29,455 nt of DNA from Armatimonadia bacterium (GTDB taxonomy: Bacteria > Armatimonadota > Zipacnadia > Zipacnadales > UBA11051): contig JBDKRC010000286.1 in assembly GCA_039683575.1 (NCBI GenBank), positions 1-29,455 of the forward strand. Reading direction: 5' to 3'. The position numbers and the translations under genes were made by a program. Within the stretch, counting starts at the first letter, position 1, and every line of letters begins with the position of its first letter. Below, one piece after another: positions 1,339-14,461 of the stretch. Below the pieces are notes generated by a model, which was given only the letters and a program-made list of their open reading frames with translations, did not search any database and was not told where the DNA came from.

Positions 1339-2118
1339 ATGACCGACGATCATGTGCTGATAGAGACGCCGGAGCACATTGAGGTTGACTACGAACTGGC
1401 AGGGCTTGGTTCGCGCGCGCTGGCCGGGATACTGGATACGGTCATCCAGGGGCTGCTCACGGCCCTGGTCGTGGCTGGGCTCGGGTGGCTGGGCGACAGG
1501 TACAATATCGAGGCCGCGTTGGGCATAATGTACGCGGTCATCATAGCCACCATGGGATTCCTCGCCGCCACTGCGTACTTTGTAGTGAGCGAGATGCTGA
1601 TGGACGGGCAGAGCCCGGGCAAGCGCATGGCGGGCCTGCGGGTAGTCCGGGACGACGGGAGCCCCATCACTTTCCTTGATTCAGCGCTCCGTAATATCAT
1701 TCGCGTTGTAGACATGCTCCCCTTCTTCTACAGTGTCGGGCTGATCGCCATGTTCTTCTCCAAACACGCCAAGCGCCTGGGAGACATGGCGGCAGGGACG
1801 ATCGTGGTGAAGGAGCGGCTGTTCGAACCGCCGGGGCAGGTGACAGAGGAGGGGGAGAGGGCAGAGGTAGTCGGGGCACCGCTGGAACTGATGGCCCGGC
1901 TGCGGACGGTGATGCATATGCTTGGCCCGGAGGACTACCAGACGGCTGAACGCTTTCTGGAGCGGCGGTACGAGCTGGAGAGGGAGACGCGCGAGCGGCT
2001 GGGGCGGCAGATGGCGGAGGGCCTGCTGGCGCGTGCGGGGCTGGCGCCTGAGGAGCAATATCCTCCCGAGGTGGTGCTGGAGGCGCTGGTGGAGCTCCAA
2101 CGAGGCAGGCCGCTGTAG
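1339..2118 (+). CDS. RDD family membrane protein
   Basis: 'IETPE...YELAG.GSR..A..LD', 'GQSPGKR..GLRVV', 'RN..R..D' and 'KRLGD.AAGTIVV' motifs. Likely start ATG 1339. Confidence 0.9.
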   Translation: MTDDHVLIETPEHIEVDYELAGLGSRALAGILDTVIQGLLTALVVAGLGWLGDRYNIEAALGIMYAVIIATMGFLAATAYFVVSEMLMDGQSPGKRMAGLRVVRDDGSPITFLDSALRNIIRVVDMLPFFYSVGLIAMFFSKHAKRLGDMAAGTIVVKERLFEPPGQVTEEGERAEVVGAPLELMARLRTVMHMLGPEDYQTAERFLERRYELERETRERLGRQMAEGLLARAGLAPEEQYPPEVVLEALVELQRGRPL

Positions 2119-2139
2119 AGACGGAGTACCGCGAAAGAT

Positions 2140-2176
2140 ACGGGGACAGGCTGGATGGCCTGTCCCCGTTTCGTTT
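2140..2176. terminator. Hairpin between convergent genes (probable intrinsic terminator, REP-like)
   Basis: ACGGGGACAGGC-tggatg-GCCTGTCCCCGT, a perfect 12-bp stem followed by TTCGTTT. Confidence 0.7.
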
Positions 2177-2228
2177 GCTTACATGTGATAGCCGGGCTCG
2201 GAAGAGCCCTTCTACCATATCCTGACGA

Positions 2229-3731
2229 CTAGCCCTCGAAGCCTTCTGACTCCTGCCGGGCTACGCCAAGACGCTGCAGCGCGCGCTCTGCGGAGTTCGA
2301 TACCTGCGGCGAGGGGTCGCTCAGGGCGCGCACCAGGACCCGCTGGGAGGCTTTGTCGTGGAGCTTGCCGAGGGCCACTACGGCGGCCCAGCGGACGTCG
2401 GGATCCGGGTCGGCAGTCTCATCGAGCATGGCCGAAAGCGACTGCACGATGCTCGTGGCAACTTCCGGCGCAAGCGGGGCCTGCTTGGCCTCCTTGGCGG
2501 GAGCAGCGATGCGCCCCAACTGAATGGCGGCGTCGCGCCGGACGCTGGCATCGCGATCGAGAGTGGCCTGATTGAGCGCGGGTACAACCGCAGGACTTCC
2601 AACCCAGCCCAGGGCCTCGACCGCAAAGCGACGGACTTCAGGAACCTTGTCGGTTGTCGCGGCCGAAGCGATCTGCGGGACCACGGGGGCAGCTGGGACA
2701 GTAATCAGTGCGGCGGCGGCGCGGCGGCGGACGTAGGCATCGGGATCCTTGAGCGCGGCAGCCAGCGGAGCGGCGGCTGAGGCCTCACCAAGGTAGCCCA
2801 AGCCCTGGGCGGCGGTTTCGCGCGTGGCGGGGTAGGGATCATTCTTGAGCGCCCAGAGCAGGGGCTGCAGGCCGGTGAGATTGGCTTTGCGGTCGCCCAT
2901 GATCTGGCGGTGGGTGGTCTGGGCCTGGCGCGCGAAAATGTCGATGCTGGGGTTGTAGCCAGCGCAGATGAGGCCTATGCACATGGCGGCAGCGTGGCGC
3001 TGCGGGCCCAACTTGCTCTCGTAAAGCGTCTTGATGAGGAAGGGCAGGGCGGGAGCGCCCTGCGCGTGGAGGGTCAGCGCGGCCTTGGCGCTGGCATCAT
3101 TGTCAGGCTGGCCCAGCAGCATAACCAACTGCTCGTTTCCGGCCTTGCCGGAGGCGGCGAGCATCTGCGTGAGGCTGATAATGGCCATGGAGCGCAGGCC
3201 GGGGTCGGGGTCTTTGGCATACTGGCGCAGGGTCTGCTCAACGACGCCACCGGGAGGGAACTTGGCCAGGGCCAGCAGCGCAGCCTTGCGGACGTCGGGA
3301 CTGCGATCAGTCTTGGAGATCGCGATGATTGGCTCGGGCTCCAGGTCTTCCACGCCCTGCAGGATGCCGACGGCACCGGCGCGGACTTGTTCACGACGGT
3401 CGGTGCGGGCGAGGGTCATGACGTAGTCAACCATCGGCTTGCGCAACTGCGCGTCGCGCTGGGTGACTACCATCTTCTGTAGTTCCTCGAGGCCCTTCTG
3501 AACACCGTGGCTATCCTCGGAGGAGATCATGCTCTTGATCTGCGCAAGGGTGACCTTGGGCGCCTCTTCCTTCTTCTTCTCTTTTTCCTTCGCCTGCTCC
3601 TCAGCCTTGGCTTCAGCCTCTTTGTCATGTCCAGCAGTGGACGGAGGCGGGGCGGGAGCGAGCAGAATAGTGAGCCCGACCAGAAGAATGAGGGCGCCGG
3701 CAATCAACAGCGTCCCGGTCTTGATCTTCAT
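2229..3731 (-). CDS. HEAT/PBS-lyase repeat protein with N-terminal signal or membrane anchor
   Basis: Many 'D.d..VR..A..ALG' repeats. MKIK followed by a hydrophobic helix and a K/E-rich linker. AAGGGAGGA RBS precedes ATG 3731. Confidence 0.85.
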   Translation of the reverse strand: MKIKTGTLLIAGALILLVGLTILLAPAPPPSTAGHDKEAEAKAEEQAKEKEKKKEEAPKVTLAQIKSMISSEDSHGVQKGLEELQKMVVTQRDAQLRKPMVDYVMTLARTDRREQVRAGAVGILQGVEDLEPEPIIAISKTDRSPDVRKAALLALAKFPPGGVVEQTLRQYAKDPDPGLRSMAIISLTQMLAASGKAGNEQLVMLLGQPDNDASAKAALTLHAQGAPALPFLIKTLYESKLGPQRHAAAMCIGLICAGYNPSIDIFARQAQTTHRQIMGDRKANLTGLQPLLWALKNDPYPATRETAAQGLGYLGEASAAAPLAAALKDPDAYVRRRAAAALITVPAAPVVPQIASAATTDKVPEVRRFAVEALGWVGSPAVVPALNQATLDRDASVRRDAAIQLGRIAAPAKEAKQAPLAPEVATSIVQSLSAMLDETADPDPDVRWAAVVALGKLHDKASQRVLVRALSDPSPQVSNSAERALQRLGVARQESEGFEG

Positions 3732-7087: not shown

Positions 7088-9667
7088 TTATCTGGTTGTG
7101 ATCTCATACCAGACTGTCGGAGCGTTGAGTTCCAGTGAATCGGCGGTGGCGGGAAGCTCCTGCTGGCGAGCACCGGTGCCATCAAGGGCGTAGGCCACCA
7201 GCTTGCGGCCCGGCATGGTCAGCTTCACAGGCACTGCTTCCGCGATGGTCGGACCGGTTCCCCAGGCTTTGCCGACGGTGCGACGGTCAGCACTCCAGCC
7301 CATGTTCTGGTTCTCCACCCGTGACATGACCACCAGGAGCATGCGCTTGGACTGCGTGAGCGGCAGGTCGTCCATGCTAGTGAGGGCGACGGCAGCCCAG
7401 CGATTGCTGGTCGGGCCGAGGTCGAAGGTGAGGTCGCCGATCTTGAGCGTCTGCCCGGCGATATGCCCCAGCGCCAGCTTCGTCTTCGGCGTGTCCACGC
7501 GGTAGAGGCTGTCGTCCTGCCCGCCGCGCCACAGAAGCTGGCCGGTGTCCGACTGCTGCTGATTGCCCTCGGGCACCTTCACGCGGTCAGCGGTGATATC
7601 CTTGGCCTTCGTCCACTGCAGCGCGATCCGCCTGGTGATGGAAGTCTCGCGGGGAACATCGTACTTCGTCCAGACACGGTCGGAATCCTTCAGATCCTCA
7701 GCCAGGAGGTTCGCAACCTCGCTTCCGGGTACCCGCATGACGGCGAGACCACGAGCGGGCGACATGTCGCCACGAATGAAGAGGTTGGCCGCCACGGGAA
7801 AGAAGGCGACCGGTGCGGGATCGGTGATCATCTGGAAGTAGCCCTGGACCCTGGCCGTTGTCCAATCCGCGGGTGTGCTGCCATAGTCGAACTGGAAGAT
7901 ACCATCCCAGTCCTGCAAGCCGGCAAAGGAAGCAGCCATGGGGATGCCCTCGGCGCGGCAGTCGCCCGGGGCCGGGTGGTTGTACTCGCTAACGGTGAAG
8001 GGCTTGCCGAAGATTCTATAGCGGGCAAGGCCAGTGAGCGTGTCCCTGCCCAGCGCCGCGGTCATGGGCGTATTGGCGATGAGCCAGTTGCCCCCGTCCC
8101 ACGGCTTGCCGGGGAAGCTGGGGTGTTGCCAGTAGGCGTGGGCGTCTATGTAGTCGAGTTGCGACTCGCGCCAGGCCCCGCCGAGGCCACCGTAGGTGTC
8201 CTGGGTGTCAATCACGCTCGCCCGTAGCTTCAGATCCTTCTTCAGGTAGTCATACATGCCCGAGGTGTATTTGCGCTCGAGGTCCATGATGAAAGCGAAC
8301 CAGTCGCGGCGGGCTTTCGCGGTGCTGGAGGAGGTGGGGAAGAGGACAGTGCCGGCCTCGAGGCTCTGATCGGGGGGCAGACCCAGCAAGCCGCCGGGCT
8401 TGAGGCTCAGGTCAGCCAGCCACACGTCGCCGAGGGTGTTTTGGCAGTTGAAGCTGATGCGGTTGTGGTCGGGCTTGGGATCACGGGCGCGGAAGGTGAA
8501 CTGGTAGGCGCGCCACTGGCTGTCGGCGGTGACGCGGGCATCGAGACCAATGCTGCGCCAGTCGGCAACGTCGTAGCGGGCGCCGATGTAGACCTCCCGC
8601 TTCGGGTCGGCCTTGATCCTGAACGAGACCGTGTAGAGCTTTCCCGCCTCGAGGCTGTGGCCGACCTGGTGAATCTGAAAGTCCCAGGAATTGGTGCCAG
8701 GCTTCACCAGCCGGGCGTGCAGAGCCTTGCCCACTTCGGGGTCCTGAACTACCTCGAAGACGTCTTCTCCTGGGTGACGGGTCTCGAGGACGAACTCCTT
8801 CGTGCCCTGGCTGAGGTCCTGGTTGCGCAGCAGCTCTTGACCGAGGGGCTCGCTGCCCTCGTCCCAGGCACGGCGCAGTTGCTCGGTGTTCTGATAGCGG
8901 GACTTGAGATAGTCGATCCAGTAGCCGCGCAGTTCGCTGATATATGGCTCTGGCAAATCATGCAGCGTGCGGTCGAACGCGAAGCCGAGAAGGCTGTTTT
9001 CGTTGTTCATCTCGACCAGAGCCACGCATGGCTCGTTCACATACTGGGTATTGGTGTAGGAGTTGGTATGGGTCAGCAGGTCGCGAGCGTAGTTCTTCTG
9101 CATCGCGATCATGCCCGCTGCGAAGTTGTCCACGCCCTTGCCGTATGAGGGCAGGAGCTTGCTGTTGGGAAAGCCGTCGCTGTCGTCCAGAGTGCGCGAC
9201 ACGTGGAGGTTGAGGTTGACGTAGATGCCCTGCTGCTTGAGTTGGTAGATGAACCAGTCCAGGCGGTCAAGCTGCCCGGCGTCGAGGTGCTGATGGTCCT
9301 TGAAGGCGGGATCCCAGATGCCCCGCGGGGTGAAGGCGTTGTCCATGTGATGGAAGCGGACACAGTTGATCCCGAGGGAGGCCATGCGGGCCGCGATGCG
9401 GGGGGCAAGCTCTTTGTCGGGGAAGGCAGTGGCAAAGGTGACGTTCGTGCCCAGGAAGCGCAGGCGCTGGCCCTTGCCATCCACGAAGCGGCCATCGCGG
9501 ACGGTCACAAAGCCGTTTTGGCCGGCAGGAACTGGCGAGGCGGGAGCGACGTTGCAGACGCTGCCGGGAGCAAGCTCAGAGATAACGAAGGGGAACCAGC
9601 CGGCGGGGACATCGGCCAGAGCGGGAAGGCTCAGGGAGACGCAGATGATGAGCCAGAGGAGCCTCAT
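7088..9667 (-). CDS. Secreted GH5-like (clan GH-A) glycoside hydrolase with inserted CBM4/9-like domain
   Basis: Signal peptide. 'R.LG.N', 'GIN.VRFHHMD', 'GIY..LNLH', acid/base 'NENS', 'D.HAYW.HP' and nucleophile 'VSEYN'. A beta-sandwich segment 'ELLRN.D...G..YT.SF..KA...W..Y.FTF' is inserted at about 8396-8836. Confidence 0.8.
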   Translation of the reverse strand: MRLLWLIICVSLSLPALADVPAGWFPFVISELAPGSVCNVAPASPVPAGQNGFVTVRDGRFVDGKGQRLRFLGTNVTFATAFPDKELAPRIAARMASLGINCVRFHHMDNAFTPRGIWDPAFKDHQHLDAGQLDRLDWFIYQLKQQGIYVNLNLHVSRTLDDSDGFPNSKLLPSYGKGVDNFAAGMIAMQKNYARDLLTHTNSYTNTQYVNEPCVALVEMNNENSLLGFAFDRTLHDLPEPYISELRGYWIDYLKSRYQNTEQLRRAWDEGSEPLGQELLRNQDLSQGTKEFVLETRHPGEDVFEVVQDPEVGKALHARLVKPGTNSWDFQIHQVGHSLEAGKLYTVSFRIKADPKREVYIGARYDVADWRSIGLDARVTADSQWRAYQFTFRARDPKPDHNRISFNCQNTLGDVWLADLSLKPGGLLGLPPDQSLEAGTVLFPTSSSTAKARRDWFAFIMDLERKYTSGMYDYLKKDLKLRASVIDTQDTYGGLGGAWRESQLDYIDAHAYWQHPSFPGKPWDGGNWLIANTPMTAALGRDTLTGLARYRIFGKPFTVSEYNHPAPGDCRAEGIPMAASFAGLQDWDGIFQFDYGSTPADWTTARVQGYFQMITDPAPVAFFPVAANLFIRGDMSPARGLAVMRVPGSEVANLLAEDLKDSDRVWTKYDVPRETSITRRIALQWTKAKDITADRVKVPEGNQQQSDTGQLLWRGGQDDSLYRVDTPKTKLALGHIAGQTLKIGDLTFDLGPTSNRWAAVALTSMDDLPLTQSKRMLLVVMSRVENQNMGWSADRRTVGKAWGTGPTIAEAVPVKLTMPGRKLVAYALDGTGARQQELPATADSLELNAPTVWYEITTR

Positions 9668-9710
9668 GTGTCACCTCACAAACGGGAGTCCAACCCCGGC
9701 GCCTGTCGAC

Positions 9711-9747
9711 GTGAGTGGGTAGGTTCGAGACGAACCCACCCACTCGC
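9711..9747. repeat. REP-like palindrome, family A copy 2
   Basis: GAGTGGGT-a-GGTTCG-AGA-CGAACC-c-ACCCACTC. Confidence 0.7.
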
Positions 9748-9761
9748 CTTGTTTGGGGGGG

Positions 9762-10442
9762 CTACTTCGGCTCCAGCAAGTTGACTACGATCTCCGGCCC
9801 CTTGCTGCCATCAGCCTGCAGCGTGTAGGCATGCAACTCATACCGCAGCTTCGGGGGCACCCCTCCACCGCTGAAGCTCACCCGCGGGGTTGCGATGCGG
9901 AACGTGAACTCACCCGTGACACTGGCGCGGTTGCGGATTCCCGGCACCACGCGCAGTTGCTCGCCGGTGTCGGCATTCAGCACTCTGGTGCTGATCACGA
10001 CGAGTTGGCCGGGGCCAGTTCGCCCGATGATCTCGATGCTGGGCCCAACGGTGTCGCCGTCTCTGGGCTGCGTCAGGGTGATCACATTCGTCGCAGCGGG
10101 CGGCCCGACAGGCCCGGAAGCCTGGCCGGACGCTGCGTTGCTAAGGGCGGAGGAGAGCTGTCCGGCGTCGTTGGCGGTGAAATAGCTCCCGCCGCCAGCC
10201 TTCGCGGTGTCCTGTAGGTACTTCTCAGCCTCGGAGCCGGCCGTGATGTCGAAGCCCACGGCGCTGATGGAGAGCTTCATCTGGGTCTGTTGCAGGGCCT
10301 GAGCGGCCTGATTGGCTGCCTGCTGCACGGTCTCCCCGTTGACTGATAGCTCCTCGGACTCCTTGGAGAAGTCATATTGTGCCAGGGCCGCCGTGCAGAC
10401 TAGTGCGGCGGCAATAATCGCGAATGTCAGCTTCTGGAGCAT
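9762..10442 (-). CDS. Secreted protein: C-terminal half of a VWA domain plus an Ig-like domain
   Basis: Own RBS (AAGGAGG 10455-10449) and signal peptide MLQKLTFAIIAAALVCTAALA|Q. 'ISAVGFDI...LQDTAKAGGGSYFTANDAGQLSSAL' corresponds to the last two strands and helices of VWA domains. 'ITLTQP.DG..V...I.I.G.T.PG' is Ig-like. Confidence 0.75.
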   Translation of the reverse strand: MLQKLTFAIIAAALVCTAALAQYDFSKESEELSVNGETVQQAANQAAQALQQTQMKLSISAVGFDITAGSEAEKYLQDTAKAGGGSYFTANDAGQLSSALSNAASGQASGPVGPPAATNVITLTQPRDGDTVGPSIEIIGRTGPGQLVVISTRVLNADTGEQLRVVPGIRNRASVTGEFTFRIATPRVSFSGGGVPPKLRYELHAYTLQADGSKGPEIVVNLLEPK

Positions 10443-12256
10443 TATCGGCCTCCTTGAGCGGGCATCTGCGCGGGCTGCACGGTGCGCATGAGCTTCATTA
10501 GCTGTGCGGCTGCCTCAGGCTGGCTGATTCCGCCATGTTCGGGACAGTTGTCCTGACCATCACACAGGATTACCATGCGTCCGGTTTTGCCGCGCCCGCG
10601 GGTCGTGAGGTAGGTGAGAGCCTTCTCGCGACCGTAGGTGAGCGGGGTATCGCCACCGTCGGAGAGCGCATCGGCGGCGGCCTTGATCTTGTTCGGGTCC
10701 ATGGTGAACCGGCAGACGGCGTTGACGCCGCAGCCACCAAACCGTACCAGGCACCATTCCGTCTTCTTATCGTTGGTCTGATCCACTGAGGTCTTGACGG
10801 CCGCGATGGCGGAGCTGATCTTCGCGCCGCTCATGCTTCCGCTGCAGTCCACGAGGAAGAGAATCGACAGCTCGGGCTTGCCTGATAGAGGGCCTGCCCA
10901 GTTGGCTTCGACCGTCATGTTACGCTCGGGCCAGCCAAACGGGCGCTTGTCGTTCTTGTTAGCCATCACGATACGGACCTTGGCGTTGTACTCCCCACCC
11001 TTGCTGGCGTCGAAGGGCACGCTTACGACGCACTTGCCCGCCTTGCCGCCGTTCCAGCCGGGCCGCTCCTCAATGGTTCCGGAATTCGGGCTCCCGACAC
11101 CGGGGGTCATGAACGGTATAGGCATCCACTGCCCGGTCTTGTCGCCGCCATAGACGTCCTTGCCGTTCGAATCCGTGATCTCGATGAAGGTCAGCAGGCT
11201 GGTTATCTCCGGCTTGCCGGGCCAAGCGGTACTGGCATCAAAGTGGGCACCCATTGCCATGCCCGTGTCGAGGTTCAGGTCGGGAACATTCAACGAAGCG
11301 GGGTTGGCGGCATAGGTGTTGAAGAAACCCACAACCTGGGAGGCCGCCGAACCGATGCGCTGGTCCCACTCACGGCAGAAGAGGCTGTACAGACCCAAAT
11401 CGTTGATGTTGTAGGTTACCGCCAGCCGCGCCTGCCCGGTCGCATCGGGCTCCACCATCTCCACTTTCTCAATGGTGAGGGGCTCCATCAGGGCTTTGTA
11501 CTCATCCGGGTTGGGCGGATAGCCCTTGAGCACGGTGCTGAAGACCGGCCCCGCGACCGACCAGCCCTGCCGGTGGCAGTTGAGCAGCCATCCCGAGGCT
11601 CCAGACATCAGCGCTGATGACCTGATCAGGTCGTCGTTGAAGGCCAGGGCCGTGTACTGCGTTATCGGTCGATAGACGATGTTGTTGGGGAAGGTGTCGT
11701 TGAAGGTGGCCGTGACGAGCTCGGTGGGCACAGCTCCGGCGCTGATGGCATATTCATCGAGGTTGCCGAAGCCCTTCTGGAAGACGTGTTCGCACTCAAC
11801 GAGTTCGAGGTGCTTGTGACGGACGATGAAGTCCCCACCAGCGCCGAAATACCCGCCGAACTGGTTGACCAGCGGGTGTACCACGCCGTCCGTGCAGTAG
11901 TGGCTGAGCCAGCCAAGCGCGAAGGCGAGGCCCTTGTTGCGGGATGCCTCGTTGGGGTCGGCAGCCGCGCGCTTGAGCATGTTGTTGATGATCTGGCCCG
12001 TGGCCTGGTAGTGGGCTTCCGAGCCAGGGTGTTGGTAGCCGAGGCCCTCGGCAATGAGGTAGGTGGTGAGGGCGATGTCCGGGCCAGTGGCGCCGGCGAT
12101 GTAGGCGGCGCGGTTGGTGTCTATGATGGCCCTGACCGCTGGTGGGGCTTGTTCGTAGGCCTTCAGGGCAACGTAGACGTGTCCGGGGCTCTGGCTGGCC
12201 CAGGCCCCGCAGGAGAGTAGCAGCAGCCCGATGAGCAAGGGAATAATGGGTCGCAA
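10442..12256 (-). CDS. Secreted Zn-dependent phospholipase C/P1-nuclease-fold protein with a C-terminally incomplete VWA domain
   Basis: AGGAGG then TTG 12256 and a signal peptide. PLC-family ligand pattern 'GH...GA.GPD...H...GWLSHYCTD..VHP.VN...H..LE'. VWA MIDAS elements DCSGS, GGDTPL and ILCDG, after which the protein ends about 35 aa later. Confidence 0.8.
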   Translation of the reverse strand: MRPIIPLLIGLLLLSCGAWASQSPGHVYVALKAYEQAPPAVRAIIDTNRAAYIAGATGPDIALTTYLIAEGLGYQHPGSEAHYQATGQIINNMLKRAAADPNEASRNKGLAFALGWLSHYCTDGVVHPLVNQFGGYFGAGGDFIVRHKHLELVECEHVFQKGFGNLDEYAISAGAVPTELVTATFNDTFPNNIVYRPITQYTALAFNDDLIRSSALMSGASGWLLNCHRQGWSVAGPVFSTVLKGYPPNPDEYKALMEPLTIEKVEMVEPDATGQARLAVTYNINDLGLYSLFCREWDQRIGSAASQVVGFFNTYAANPASLNVPDLNLDTGMAMGAHFDASTAWPGKPEITSLLTFIEITDSNGKDVYGGDKTGQWMPIPFMTPGVGSPNSGTIEERPGWNGGKAGKCVVSVPFDASKGGEYNAKVRIVMANKNDKRPFGWPERNMTVEANWAGPLSGKPELSILFLVDCSGSMSGAKISSAIAAVKTSVDQTNDKKTEWCLVRFGGCGVNAVCRFTMDPNKIKAAADALSDGGDTPLTYGREKALTYLTTRGRGKTGRMVILCDGQDNCPEHGGISQPEAAAQLMKLMRTVQPAQMPAQGGR

Positions 12257-12451
12257 GATCTGCCTCCTTGAGTTAGCGCGGAGCGCGTGGTGGCCCGCGG
12301 GAACGACCATCATCTTCAACCAGACATCATAGCAGGAACGACCGGGAAATACTATATAAGGAAAGACCCGCCAGGCGTCGCTGCGGTTGACGAAACCTTT
12401 GCGCCTAATGTATTGTGGCAGTGCATTCTACTTCCGCTCGAGATGAGCCTC

Positions 12452-13264
12452 ATGCAGTGGCTGCAATCCGCAGTAGATTTCGTCCGTGCCCTGCGCTGGA
12501 TTGATGGCGTTGACATCATCCTCGTGGCGATATTGTGCTACCAGGCGCTCCTGTTCATACGCCAGGCACGGTCGCTATCGCTCATCAAGGGCGTCATTGT
12601 TGTCGTCTCCGTCATCCTCATCACCACCTGGTTCCCCACCTTCAACTGGCTTGTGGACCGCCTGGTCCTGCCCGGTGTCATCGCCCTGGTTGTGATCTTC
12701 CAGCCCGAGTTGCGCATGGCGCTCGAGCGGCTGGGACGCGGCGGTTGGCTGTCGAACATGCTTGAACGCGTCTCGGTGGACGAGCAGCAGGCGGTGCTCA
12801 ACGAGGTGGTGGATACGGCTGAGGATTTTGCCGAGCGCCGCATCGGGGCGCTGATCGTGCTGCAGCGGCATTCGAGCCTGATGGGCATCACCCGCACCGG
12901 CAAGACGATCAACGCGCGCGTGTCGGCAGAGCTCCTGGCAGCGATCTTTGAGCCGCACAGCCCGCTGCACGACGGAGCCGTTGTCATTCGTGGCGACGTC
13001 CTCGTCGCCGCGGCCTGCGTGCTGCCACACTCCGAGAGTCCCAGCATCTCCGCCAGTACCGGCATGCGACACCGCGCCGCGCTGGGTCTCAGCGAACGCA
13101 CCGACGCCGTCTGCCTCGTCGTCTCAGAGGAGACCGGTGGTTTGACGCTGGCAGTTGACGGGGCACTCAGCCCGCACCTCGAAAAAGTGCAGCTGCTCGA
13201 GCGTTTGATGGCACTGGTCGAATCAGAGCGCGAGCAGGCGCGGTTCTTCTTCTGGCGCAAATAG
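12452..13264 (+). CDS. cdaA: Diadenylate cyclase CdaA (DacA)
   Basis: Three N-terminal TM helices, 'IFQPELR.ALE.LG', catalytic 'LHDGA' and 'RHRAA', 'VSEETG'. The start could alternatively be 12443. Confidence 0.95.
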   Translation: MQWLQSAVDFVRALRWIDGVDIILVAILCYQALLFIRQARSLSLIKGVIVVVSVILITTWFPTFNWLVDRLVLPGVIALVVIFQPELRMALERLGRGGWLSNMLERVSVDEQQAVLNEVVDTAEDFAERRIGALIVLQRHSSLMGITRTGKTINARVSAELLAAIFEPHSPLHDGAVVIRGDVLVAAACVLPHSESPSISASTGMRHRAALGLSERTDAVCLVVSEETGGLTLAVDGALSPHLEKVQLLERLMALVESEREQARFFFWRK

Positions 13265-13282
13265 CGCGTCACGCGGACCAAA

Positions 13283-14461
13283 ATGAATCTGGCAAAAAGA
13301 ATACGACACAACTTAGGCCTGAAAGCGCTCGCGCTGGCGTTGGCGCTGCTCATCTGGGGCCTCGTGCGCAACCAGGCGGATCCGTCCATGCTGCAGCACC
13401 GGACGCTCGCCGTGGAGGTCGTCGGCGTGCCGGAACACCTCGCGGTGGCGGCTGTTACCCCGAGCCAGGTGTCGCTGACGCTTTACGGGCGCAATTCGGC
13501 GTTGCAGCGGCTTGAGGACAGCGGATTCCGCATTGTTGCGCGGGTTACCGACGCCACTGCTCGATCAACTCGCGTCCAGGTTGAGCCTCAGAACCTCCCG
13601 CCCGGGGTCGAGATCAGGGATCTGGTCCCGCTCTCGGTCCGGGTTGAGCTTGACGCCGAAGTCTCCGCTGCGCGCCCCGTGTTCGTTCAACTGCGTGGCA
13701 ACCCCGCCGAAGGCTTTACCGCCTCGGAGCCTCAGGTTCGTCCGAATGAGGTCACAATCAGCGGACCCAGTCGCCAAGTCGAAAAGGTGGCGCGAGTGGT
13801 GGCGGAGGTTGATGTCTCCGGCCGCAGTACCGAGGAGCCAATCACCATTCCGCTACTGGCCCGCGATGCCGCCAGCCTGCTCGTGCCGGGTATCCAGATC
13901 ACTCCGGATCAGGTCGCGGTCACGGTACCGCTGCGCAAGATTGACAGCCGCACGGTTCCCGTCGCCCCGGTGCTCAGCGAGGTGCCACGAGGGTACGACG
14001 TAGAATCTGTCAGCGTGCGGCCAGTTGTCGTCACGGTCACTGGCTCCAGCAGACTGCTCGGCGACGTTGACACAGTGCAGACGGCGCCTATCAATCTGAC
14101 GGGCTCAGCGGGCCGCACGAGCTACACAGTCCCGTTGCGTCTCGCGACTGGTCTCCACAGTGACACCGACTCCGTCGTTGTCACCATAACATTGGGCCGT
14201 GGCGGAGGGAGTTCGGGCAATGGCCGCGGTTCGCGCGCCACTGAGACCTCCCCTGCCGGGGAAAGCGCTCCCGAGGCAACCAGCCCTTCCCCGCGGCCAC
14301 CCGCTGCGCAACCCGCCGAACAGACCCCGCCCCCTGCCGTCGCGCCTCCAGCCGGCGAGGAGGAGCGCTCTACGGGGGCCGCGCCTCGTAATCCATCGAC
14401 AACGCACGCACCGCGCACTCCGGCGCGAGGGCCCCGCCCCGAACCTAAGGGAACGGATTAG
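13283..14461 (+). CDS. cdaR: CdaR/YbbR-like regulator of diadenylate cyclase
   Basis: 'N.GLK.LAL.LA..IW' anchor, three 'V.P..V...G' YbbR-type repeats and a Pro/Ala-rich tail. Directly downstream of cdaA. Confidence 0.9.
   Translation: MNLAKRIRHNLGLKALALALALLIWGLVRNQADPSMLQHRTLAVEVVGVPEHLAVAAVTPSQVSLTLYGRNSALQRLEDSGFRIVARVTDATARSTRVQVEPQNLPPGVEIRDLVPLSVRVELDAEVSAARPVFVQLRGNPAEGFTASEPQVRPNEVTISGPSRQVEKVARVVAEVDVSGRSTEEPITIPLLARDAASLLVPGIQITPDQVAVTVPLRKIDSRTVPVAPVLSEVPRGYDVESVSVRPVVVTVTGSSRLLGDVDTVQTAPINLTGSAGRTSYTVPLRLATGLHSDTDSVVVTITLGRGGGSSGNGRGSRATETSPAGESAPEATSPSPRPPAAQPAEQTPPPAVAPPAGEEERSTGAAPRNPSTTHAPRTPARGPRPEPKGTD

Follow-up and report, generated by a model that had tools for sequence, protein, structure and literature searches.

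The contig JBDKRC010000286.1 of an Armatimonadia bacterium (GenBank assembly GCA_039683575.1), analysed from position 1 to 29,455 and referred to below as the window, carries on its minus strand two overlapping genes, at 9762-12256, that divide one VWA domain between two secreted-type proteins. The first gene encodes P0001, a cargo protein with the N-terminal two thirds of the domain at its end, and the second encodes P0002, an adaptor in which a signal peptide is followed by the remaining part of the domain and by an immunoglobulin (Ig)-like sandwich. We read this arrangement, with a probability of roughly three in four, as an operon of two genes for a VWA domain that is split in nature and whose halves would complete one fold after export. 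The observations that carry this reading are the anatomy of both proteins, the conservation of the break point, the homology of each half to VWA domains and the co-occurrence of the two halves in genomes. The features of the two genes are listed below, with secondary structure and the predicted local distance difference test score (pLDDT) taken from AlphaFold2 (AF2) models and signal peptides judged by eye and hydropathy.

10442-12256, minus strand: gene 1 (P0001), 604 residues plus stop; secreted-type cargo with the N-terminal two thirds of a VWA domain at its end; AF2 mean pLDDT 89.6
12197-12256, minus strand: P0001 signal peptide, residues 1-20, ending in AWA and followed by S
11489-12196, minus strand: Zn-dependent phospholipase C (PLC) / P1-nuclease-like domain, all-helical, residues 21-256 (PF00882; helices within 23-256 of the model)
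10877-11488, minus strand: β-rich middle region, residues 257-460, from AF2 secondary structure; no Pfam family match
10445-10876, minus strand: VWA N-half, residues 461-604; β1-α1-β2-β3-α2-α3-β4-α4 with all five residues of the metal ion-dependent adhesion site (MIDAS)
10449-10455, minus strand: Shine-Dalgarno sequence AAGGAGG of gene 2, 6 nt 5' of the ATG, within the last codons of gene 1, where it codes for the conserved Gly-Gly tail
9762-10442, minus strand: gene 2 (P0002), 226 residues plus stop; secreted-type adaptor made of the VWA C-half and an Ig-like domain; AF2 mean pLDDT 84.4
10380-10442, minus strand: P0002 signal peptide, residues 1-21, ending in ALA and followed by Q
10113-10379, minus strand: VWA C-half, residues 22-110; helix 39-52, β5 59-64, α5 71-82, β6 84-90, last helix 93-105
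9765-10082, minus strand: Ig-like / FN3-like seven-stranded β sandwich, residues 121-226; pLDDT >90, strands within 122-223

Each chain matches a different part of the VWA fold

The VWA fold runs in the order β1-α1-β2-β3-α2-α3-β4-α4-β5-α5-β6-α6. Set against this order, the anatomy of the models indicates that P0001 ends after α4 and that P0002 adds an α4-like helix and the elements from β5 to α6. The MIDAS motifs of P0001, DCSGS (residues 470-474), GGDTPL (534-539) and ILCDGQDNC (563-571), are followed by one helix. In the model the VWA elements are β1 (463-470), α1 (478-494), β2 (499-507), β3 (510-518), α2 (521-529), α3 (539-553), β4 (558-564) and α4 (579-591), this last with a pLDDT of only 53-62; a complete six-stranded fold is not present in this chain, which has β1-β4 and α1-α4 only. 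P0002 contains the motifs VQQAANQAAQAL, ISAVGFDI, GGGSYFTA and DAGQLSSAL. The two genes overlap in the sequence TAATG, in which gene 1 stops with TAA (10444-10442) and gene 2 starts with ATG (from 10442). An earlier note on this DNA had given these coordinates and motifs, together with the TAATG junction and its AAGGAGG 6 nt upstream, and all were as described when the sequence was re-read.

The N-half is recognised by two Pfam families, VWA_2 (PF13519) at residues 465-568 (40.7 bits, cut-off 27) and VWA (PF00092) at 465-588 (29.8 bits, cut-off 23.8), the latter over profile positions 2-128 of 174. It aligns with the VWA domain of BchD (2x31_A) over residues 8-144 of 189 with an E of 6e-12, and a Foldseek search with the whole P0001 model returned VWA matches only. 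The five MIDAS residues, D470, S472, S474, T537 and D566, are invariant in 57/57 aligned N-half proteins.

For the C-half, a profile hidden Markov model (HMM) from a C-half-only alignment (A4; 21 sequences, 90 positions) was searched against 1.84 billion representative sequences. This search gave 794 proteins at E<=1e-3, 30 of them at E<=1e-10. Among the best 150 of the 794 matches, 71 are single chains with a match to the N-half HMM directly upstream, that is, ordinary VWA domains; 25 consist of a signal peptide and an N-terminal C-half (P0220 being doubtful), 14 are fragments and 40 are of other kinds. The P0002 family profile also matches a solved VWFA chain (9e5c_4s, residues 419-481, E 1.3e-4). 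Judged by these profile matches, the C-half corresponds by homology to what forms the last third of ordinary VWA domains and is missing from P0001.

The two chains together hold one helix too many. In single-chain VWA domains the MIDAS Asp and the Val-Gly of β5 are a median of 28 residues apart (74 N/C match pairs, 48 of which fall at 26-29), which leaves room for one helix, whereas in the split pair about 38 and 41 residues, 79 in all, lie between the same points and contain two helices. The helix that had been noticed at first reading in both chains is thus borne out by the spacing.

The break point is conserved across a bacterial order

Relatives of P0002 number 52, with 124-270 residues, and 44 of them (P0003-P0046) have the same build at identities down to 44%; wherever the source names the organism, they are labelled Armatimonadota. 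For the VWA part of P0001, 56 relatives of 403-703 residues were found, and 56/56 end after the same helix with a short Gly-Gly tail, which arises from translation of the Shine-Dalgarno sequence that serves the next gene. In agreement with this, the Pfam VWA match ends at profile position 118-131 in 10/10 other cargo variants tested.

In a sample of 401 Armatimonadota genomes the N-half was detected at E<=1e-10 in 21, all of one order (11/11 genomes in family f1, 4/11 in f3, 4/13 in f4 and 1/2 in f5). The same 21 genomes carry the C-half (E<=1.1e-24), and two others gave weak C-half matches only, both inside longer open reading frames (ORFs). These genomes hold 27 N-half genes, of which 21 have a C-half gene directly downstream and four have one after an intervening second N-half gene; one is cut by a contig end and one is an orphan. 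A search with an HMM of each half, as the earlier note had proposed, therefore finds conserved split pairs, with a C-half adjoining 21 of the 27 N-half genes. At the 21 N/C junctions the genes overlap by 1 nt in four cases and by 4 nt in 11, and are separated by 31-74 nt in six (with start codons as chosen by the analyst). The stop codon at the junction varies among the pairs, no fused N/C ORF was found (0/21), and a hydrophobic leader stands at the start of the C-half gene in 21/21. A profile scan of the genome contigs with P0002 alone gave two loci only.

The junction is intact in independent DNA. DNA contigs of two public wastewater runs span it (X1, 9600-10784, and X2, 9839-10762), and no insertion or deletion in 9762-12256 was seen in the contigs of the four runs compared. 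Of the listed sites that differ between strains, 11 of 12 in P0002 and 21 of 24 in P0001 are third codon positions, and 55 further differences lie outside the list; the pair is under selection and does not show decay. These data bear on several statements of the earlier note. It had judged a simple frameshift unlikely, which agrees with a split found in 21/401 genomes, without indels and with a leader on every paired C-half gene. It had asked for a sequence check across 10380-10520, a region that the contigs of two runs cross without an indel. Other genomes have the split too, and its variation, mostly at third codon positions, is not that of a decaying gene. The signal peptide attributed to the second protein agrees with the reading by eye and hydropathy and with the leader in 21/21 paired C-half genes.

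Predicted complex of the two halves

The two halves are predicted to fold together. A complex prediction was made with P0001 residues 445-604 and P0002 residues 23-226, on alignments built for this analysis, in three runs and with three controls, and scored by ipSAE (interaction prediction score from aligned errors). The score was 0.82 (runs 0.81, 0.82 and 0.84) vs 0.00 for the best of the three controls; in the calibration, which holds only roughly for such purpose-built alignments, the mark is reached by 58 of 80 solved complexes and by 2 of 110 mismatched pairs. At least 87% of the contacts are common to the runs and the pLDDT of the partners is at least 78. The contacts of highest confidence join residues 558-565 of P0001 (β4) to 56-63 of P0002 (β5) and residues 486-490 of P0001 (α1) to 96-100 of P0002 (last helix), and β6 of P0002 lies off the interface, as expected of an edge strand. 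The predicted contacts correspond to the canonical VWA arrangement and support, without proving, the completion of one fold. The co-folding suggested in the earlier note is thus favoured by a prediction that comes without coordinates, and its view of the pair as a docking device working by fold complementation gains support from the conservation of the split, from the 0/21 fused pairs and from the difference between 0.82 and 0.00.

A Gly-Glu-Thr motif before the first helix of the C-half (P0002 residues 36-38) is at least 90% conserved in alignment A4 and falls within the predicted interface.

From these elements an assembly route can be proposed. Both chains would leave the cytoplasm unfolded by the Sec pathway, as the leaders suggest, and coupled translation (with overlapping genes in 15/21 pairs) would supply them in equal amounts. 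Outside the cytoplasm the C-half would add β5, β6 and three helices to the open N-half, with β5 joining beside β4 and the last helix packing on α1, so that one VWA domain would close around a complete MIDAS. The outcome would be a stable 1:1 heterodimer tying the enzyme-like domain to the Ig-like domain, and in genomes with several N-half genes the cargoes would share one adaptor.

Cargo proteins

The PLC-like domain of P0001 matches PF00882 (Zn_dep_PLPC) at residues 26-134 (E 1.8e-10, 41.4 bits vs a cut-off of 26.8) over profile positions 2-98 of 167 only. Residues H26, D60, H82, H119, D123, H127, H147 and E151 are invariant in 31/31 aligned PLC-type members, and these eight positions may, by their motif pattern, correspond to the zinc ligands of phospholipase C. 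A sequence search of solved chains with this domain returned nothing at E<=1. By sequence, it is phospholipase C / P1-nuclease-like and a putative enzyme.

Once the VWA part is set aside, the 57 N-half proteins fall by all-against-all BLAST into seven cargo classes, of 32 PLC-type proteins, 10 of about 403 residues, nine of about 570 residues, and then 2, 2, 1 and 1. A hydrophobic N-terminus is present in 51/57, and the other six look mis-called or cut at the start. No Pfam family was found for the non-PLC cargo domains in the 10 other cargo proteins scanned, and two other cargo N-domains submitted to the ESM Atlas gave no usable match (best score 0.80, a value often reached by shuffled proteins). 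N-half genes outnumber C-half genes in 5/21 genomes, 2:1 in G067, G203, G297 and G347 and 3:2 in G302. A half-VWA on at least seven cargo types, together with two or three N-half genes per C-half in some genomes, points to a shared docking module, and the split VWA is most likely a docking module common to several cargoes. The existence of other half-VWA partners, raised at first reading, is borne out by the seven cargo classes, the operons with two N-half genes and the one orphan N-half.

In one genus the operons with two cargo genes per adaptor comprise a non-PLC N-half, a PLC-type N-half, a C-half-Ig gene and an Ig-only gene (L014/L031 in G067:C63, L015/L032 in G297:C124, L035/L026 in G302:C208 and L034/L024 in G203:C31). 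The orphan N-half (L030; G347:C451, ORF 1492-3249, minus strand) has 585 residues with a helical N-domain and a linker of Pro-Asp-Asp-Gln-Gln repeats. The gene downstream of it is convergent, and the only C-half found in that genome lies beside another N-half on another contig (L023).

Adaptor proteins

Fold searches with the Ig-like domain (P0002 residues 115-226) gave generic sandwiches only, the best Foldseek match being 2xwx_A (3.1e-5) and the best of a VIA fold search 8f9r_B (Z 10.2, root-mean-square deviation 2.3, 91 residues aligned); a PapD-like fold was merely one of many such sandwiches. The domain recurs at the C-terminus of other secreted-looking proteins of the same genome (loci L037 and L036), in three tandem copies on one contig (G000:C54:21121-22414) and at the end of an ORF of 934 residues on another (G000:C239:12337-15138). 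No Pfam family was found in these paralogues or in the other adaptor types. As a shared C-terminal element, the Ig-like sandwich may be an anchoring, sorting or binding domain.

C-halves are also joined to one or two copies of a different β domain (P0113, P0115, P0118, P0119, L071), to repeats (P0116), to an α/β domain (P0124, P0125, P0128, P0129, P0135) or to a Pro-rich tail (P0143, P0145, P0154, P0156, P0159). The non-Ig C-half gene at locus L016, which is P0113, lies directly downstream of a PLC-type N-half. P0211 (252 residues), read by eye, begins with a signal peptide and a C-half-like segment, which are followed by a predicted membrane span and an FHA-type-like C-terminal part; perhaps it is an adaptor anchored in the membrane.

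Single-ORF relatives and proteins outside the order

Longer relatives of P0002 (397-2000 residues) were absent from 6761 candidates, which is weak evidence, and single-chain relatives were found later by the search of representatives. P0123 (322 residues, 5'-partial) unites the N-half, both helices, the C-half and the Ig-like domain in a single chain that has no hydrophobic stretch between these parts. Another genome from the window's genus has an open frame of 1960 residues (L073, G337:C1:47964-51188, ORF L073:1-2853, minus strand) that starts with its own leader and contains a VWA N-half without the MIDAS residues, then a hydrophobic, signal-peptide-like stretch that ends in Gly-Glu-Ala-Arg-Met-Leu-Ser, as in some C-half precursors, then a C-half (E 3.4e-18) and a long repeat region without Pfam match. 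P0130 has a similar leader-like stretch between its halves. These rare proteins would be secondary fusions of a split pair, some of which keep the internal leader as a relic, although the reverse direction is possible too; whichever the direction, they link both halves.

A metagenome scan for the small family of signal peptide plus C-half (A5) gave nine loci, none of them of that family. The nearest two (L038 and L039, 47-48% identity) are ordinary fused VWA ORFs.

Alternative explanations

Several points weigh against completion of one VWA fold by two exported chains. AF2 gives the half-VWA of P0001, modelled alone, a pLDDT of about 90, the last helix excepted (53-62), so that this model shows no need for a partner. 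Neither Pfam nor NCBIfam gives a match for P0002, whose similarity to a solved VWA chain is modest (E 1.3e-4). The complex score may stem from the model's memory of the VWA fold, by which the halves of a split gene tend to pass, and the prediction comes without coordinates in which the continuity of a six-stranded sheet and the placement of the two helices would be visible. Binding, export and activity are predicted, the signal peptides being judged by eye and hydropathy only. As for the wider proposals, the Ig-like domain has generic fold matches only, the sharing of cargoes leans on gene counts in draft genomes of many contigs, and the loci closest to the small proteins of signal peptide plus C-half outside the order are fused VWAs.

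The confident model of the lone half-VWA, the lack of a Pfam match in P0002 and the one N-half gene without a C-half neighbour could all be expected if the two proteins were operon partners without fold complementation, P0001 having a self-sufficient mini-VWA and the N-terminal part of P0002 being an independent α/β module, with loose cooperation or none. We regard this as unlikely. The C-half is homologous to exactly the piece that P0001 lacks, the break point is identical in 56/56 relatives, the two halves co-occur strictly (21/21 genomes), single-ORF relatives exist, and the complex prediction pairs β4 with β5 at 0.82 vs 0.00 for the best control.

About as improbable, in our estimate, is a transient completion resembling donor-strand exchange, in which the C-half would be a periplasmic chaperone or assembly factor that caps the half-VWA and is later exchanged, in a fibre or in a hand-over to a surface receptor. 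The presence of an α4-equivalent helix on both chains could permit such an exchange, N-halves outnumber C-halves in 5/21 genomes, and extra Ig-only genes stand beside many pairs. Against it, no subunit of usher or pilin type and no second one with a C-half was identified (with Pfam applied to three neighbouring genes only), the coupling in 15/21 pairs suggests equimolar synthesis, and the single-ORF relatives speak for a union that is permanent.

Two frames that overlap at TAATG and the few distant relatives that are single ORFs could suggest a decaying gene or an artefact, be it an assembly error, a frameshift, or one chain made by read-through or programmed frameshifting. This is very improbable. 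Against it stand the 21 genomes that share the split, with differing stop codons and junction spacings (-4, -1 or a gap of 31-74 nt), a full leader at the start of every paired C-half gene, and independent DNA contigs that cross the junction without an indel and vary mostly at third codon positions.

The locus

Two further features flank the coding pair.

12263-12269, minus strand: Shine-Dalgarno sequence AAGGAGG of gene 1, 6 nt upstream of the TTG start at 12256; orthologues, e.g. P0056, begin at the equivalent residue
9713-9745, minus strand: hairpin with a perfect 15-bp stem and a 3-nt loop, about 17 nt past the stop of gene 2; -42 kcal/mol (76-nt stretch), z -4.7 vs shuffled sequences

The hairpin probably marks the transcript end of the gene pair; it has no T-tail, and a scan for consensus terminators found no T-tailed terminator 3' of gene 2. 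Contigs of two RNA libraries from one sample lie in pieces on 9747-12289, with none on 9600-9693 or 12326-12400, and begin at 9747 and 9756, which is a weak hint only. This extent fits a transcript bounded by the hairpin without proving it, and in the libraries of that one sample no RNA contig spans the junction with 31 letters on each side, so that co-transcription is not established.

Beyond the hairpin, at 7088-9667 on the minus strand, lies the gene of a secreted-looking protein of 859 residues whose sole Pfam match is CBM_4_9 (residues 314-408) and which starts about 95 nt after gene 2 stops. On the other side, at 12287-14461 on the plus strand and divergent from gene 1, are a CdaA diadenylate cyclase gene (DAC and CdaA_N) and then a YbbR/CdaR-like gene with a Pro/Ala-rich tail. 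With the hairpin 3' of gene 2, the CBM_4_9 gene as the next one downstream and the CdaA and YbbR/CdaR-like genes on the opposite strand, the genes of P0001 and P0002 look like a two-gene unit.

Relation to known systems and significance

In single-chain VWA or integrin I-type domains, such as those of BchD (2x31), the pilus-tip protein Mfa5 (6tnj) and CMG2, the DxSxS...T...D site and the Rossmann-like order are the same as here, and both Pfam VWA/VWA_2 and fold matches connect them with the pair. The differences are that here the fold is divided after α4, that there are two signal peptides and that each chain bears an α4-equivalent helix.

Donor-strand complementation, in chaperone-usher and type V pili, also has an incomplete secreted subunit completed in trans by a segment of another. 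There one strand is given to an Ig-like pilin and the subunits polymerise, whereas here two strands and three helices of an α/β fold would be supplied; no pilus machinery was identified in the three neighbouring genes scanned with Pfam (CBM_4_9, CdaA and YbbR/CdaR-like). In the cohesin-dockerin system, unrelated secreted cargoes have a short C-terminal module in common, for which a multi-domain adaptor carries the fitting partner. The logic is similar, without relation in sequence or fold, and the interface here would be one domain's hydrophobic core rather than a contact between two folded domains. Pfam scans of P0001, P0002, 10 other cargo proteins and eight further relatives gave no cohesin or dockerin family. 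Split inteins and similar cases form one fold from the products of two genes, the fragments of which reassociate. All naturally split cases of fragment complementation known to us are cytoplasmic, whereas both VWA fragments bear predicted export signals, so that assembly would occur after Sec transport.

In the portions of the literature that were accessible, no description of such a split, separately exported VWA system was found. The 'split domains' of RTX adhesins appear to be a different phenomenon. The VWA domain and gene fission are already known; what appears new is a two-chain fold, separately exported, kept across an order and reused on many cargoes.

A wider version of the docking proposal, which we put forward tentatively and at somewhat less than even odds, is a combinatorial system of the envelope or exterior. 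In it, unrelated cargoes with an open half-VWA would be matched by fewer adaptors (Ig, other β, repeats, α/β, Pro-rich), one adaptor would take several cargoes after Sec export without protein ligation, and the metal site would be competent only once the fold is closed; the system might extend beyond Armatimonadota, to the small proteins of signal peptide plus C-half met with among the representative sequences.

For annotation, the pair is a warning that a 'VWA domain-containing protein' can conceal a truncated protein, the partner of which is assigned to no family. With its doubled α4, its gained signal peptide and the re-fusions that keep a relic leader, it would offer a tractable model of how the fission of a domain gene becomes fixed, and protein engineering could possibly use it as a compact pair that heterodimerises. 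It is very rare for a single protein domain to be encoded in more than one piece. If our reading is true, the split VWA, conserved across an entire bacterial order, would be a clear example from nature of fold complementation that serves assembly beyond the cytoplasm, and a new way in which bacteria attach interchangeable enzymes to a common adaptor.

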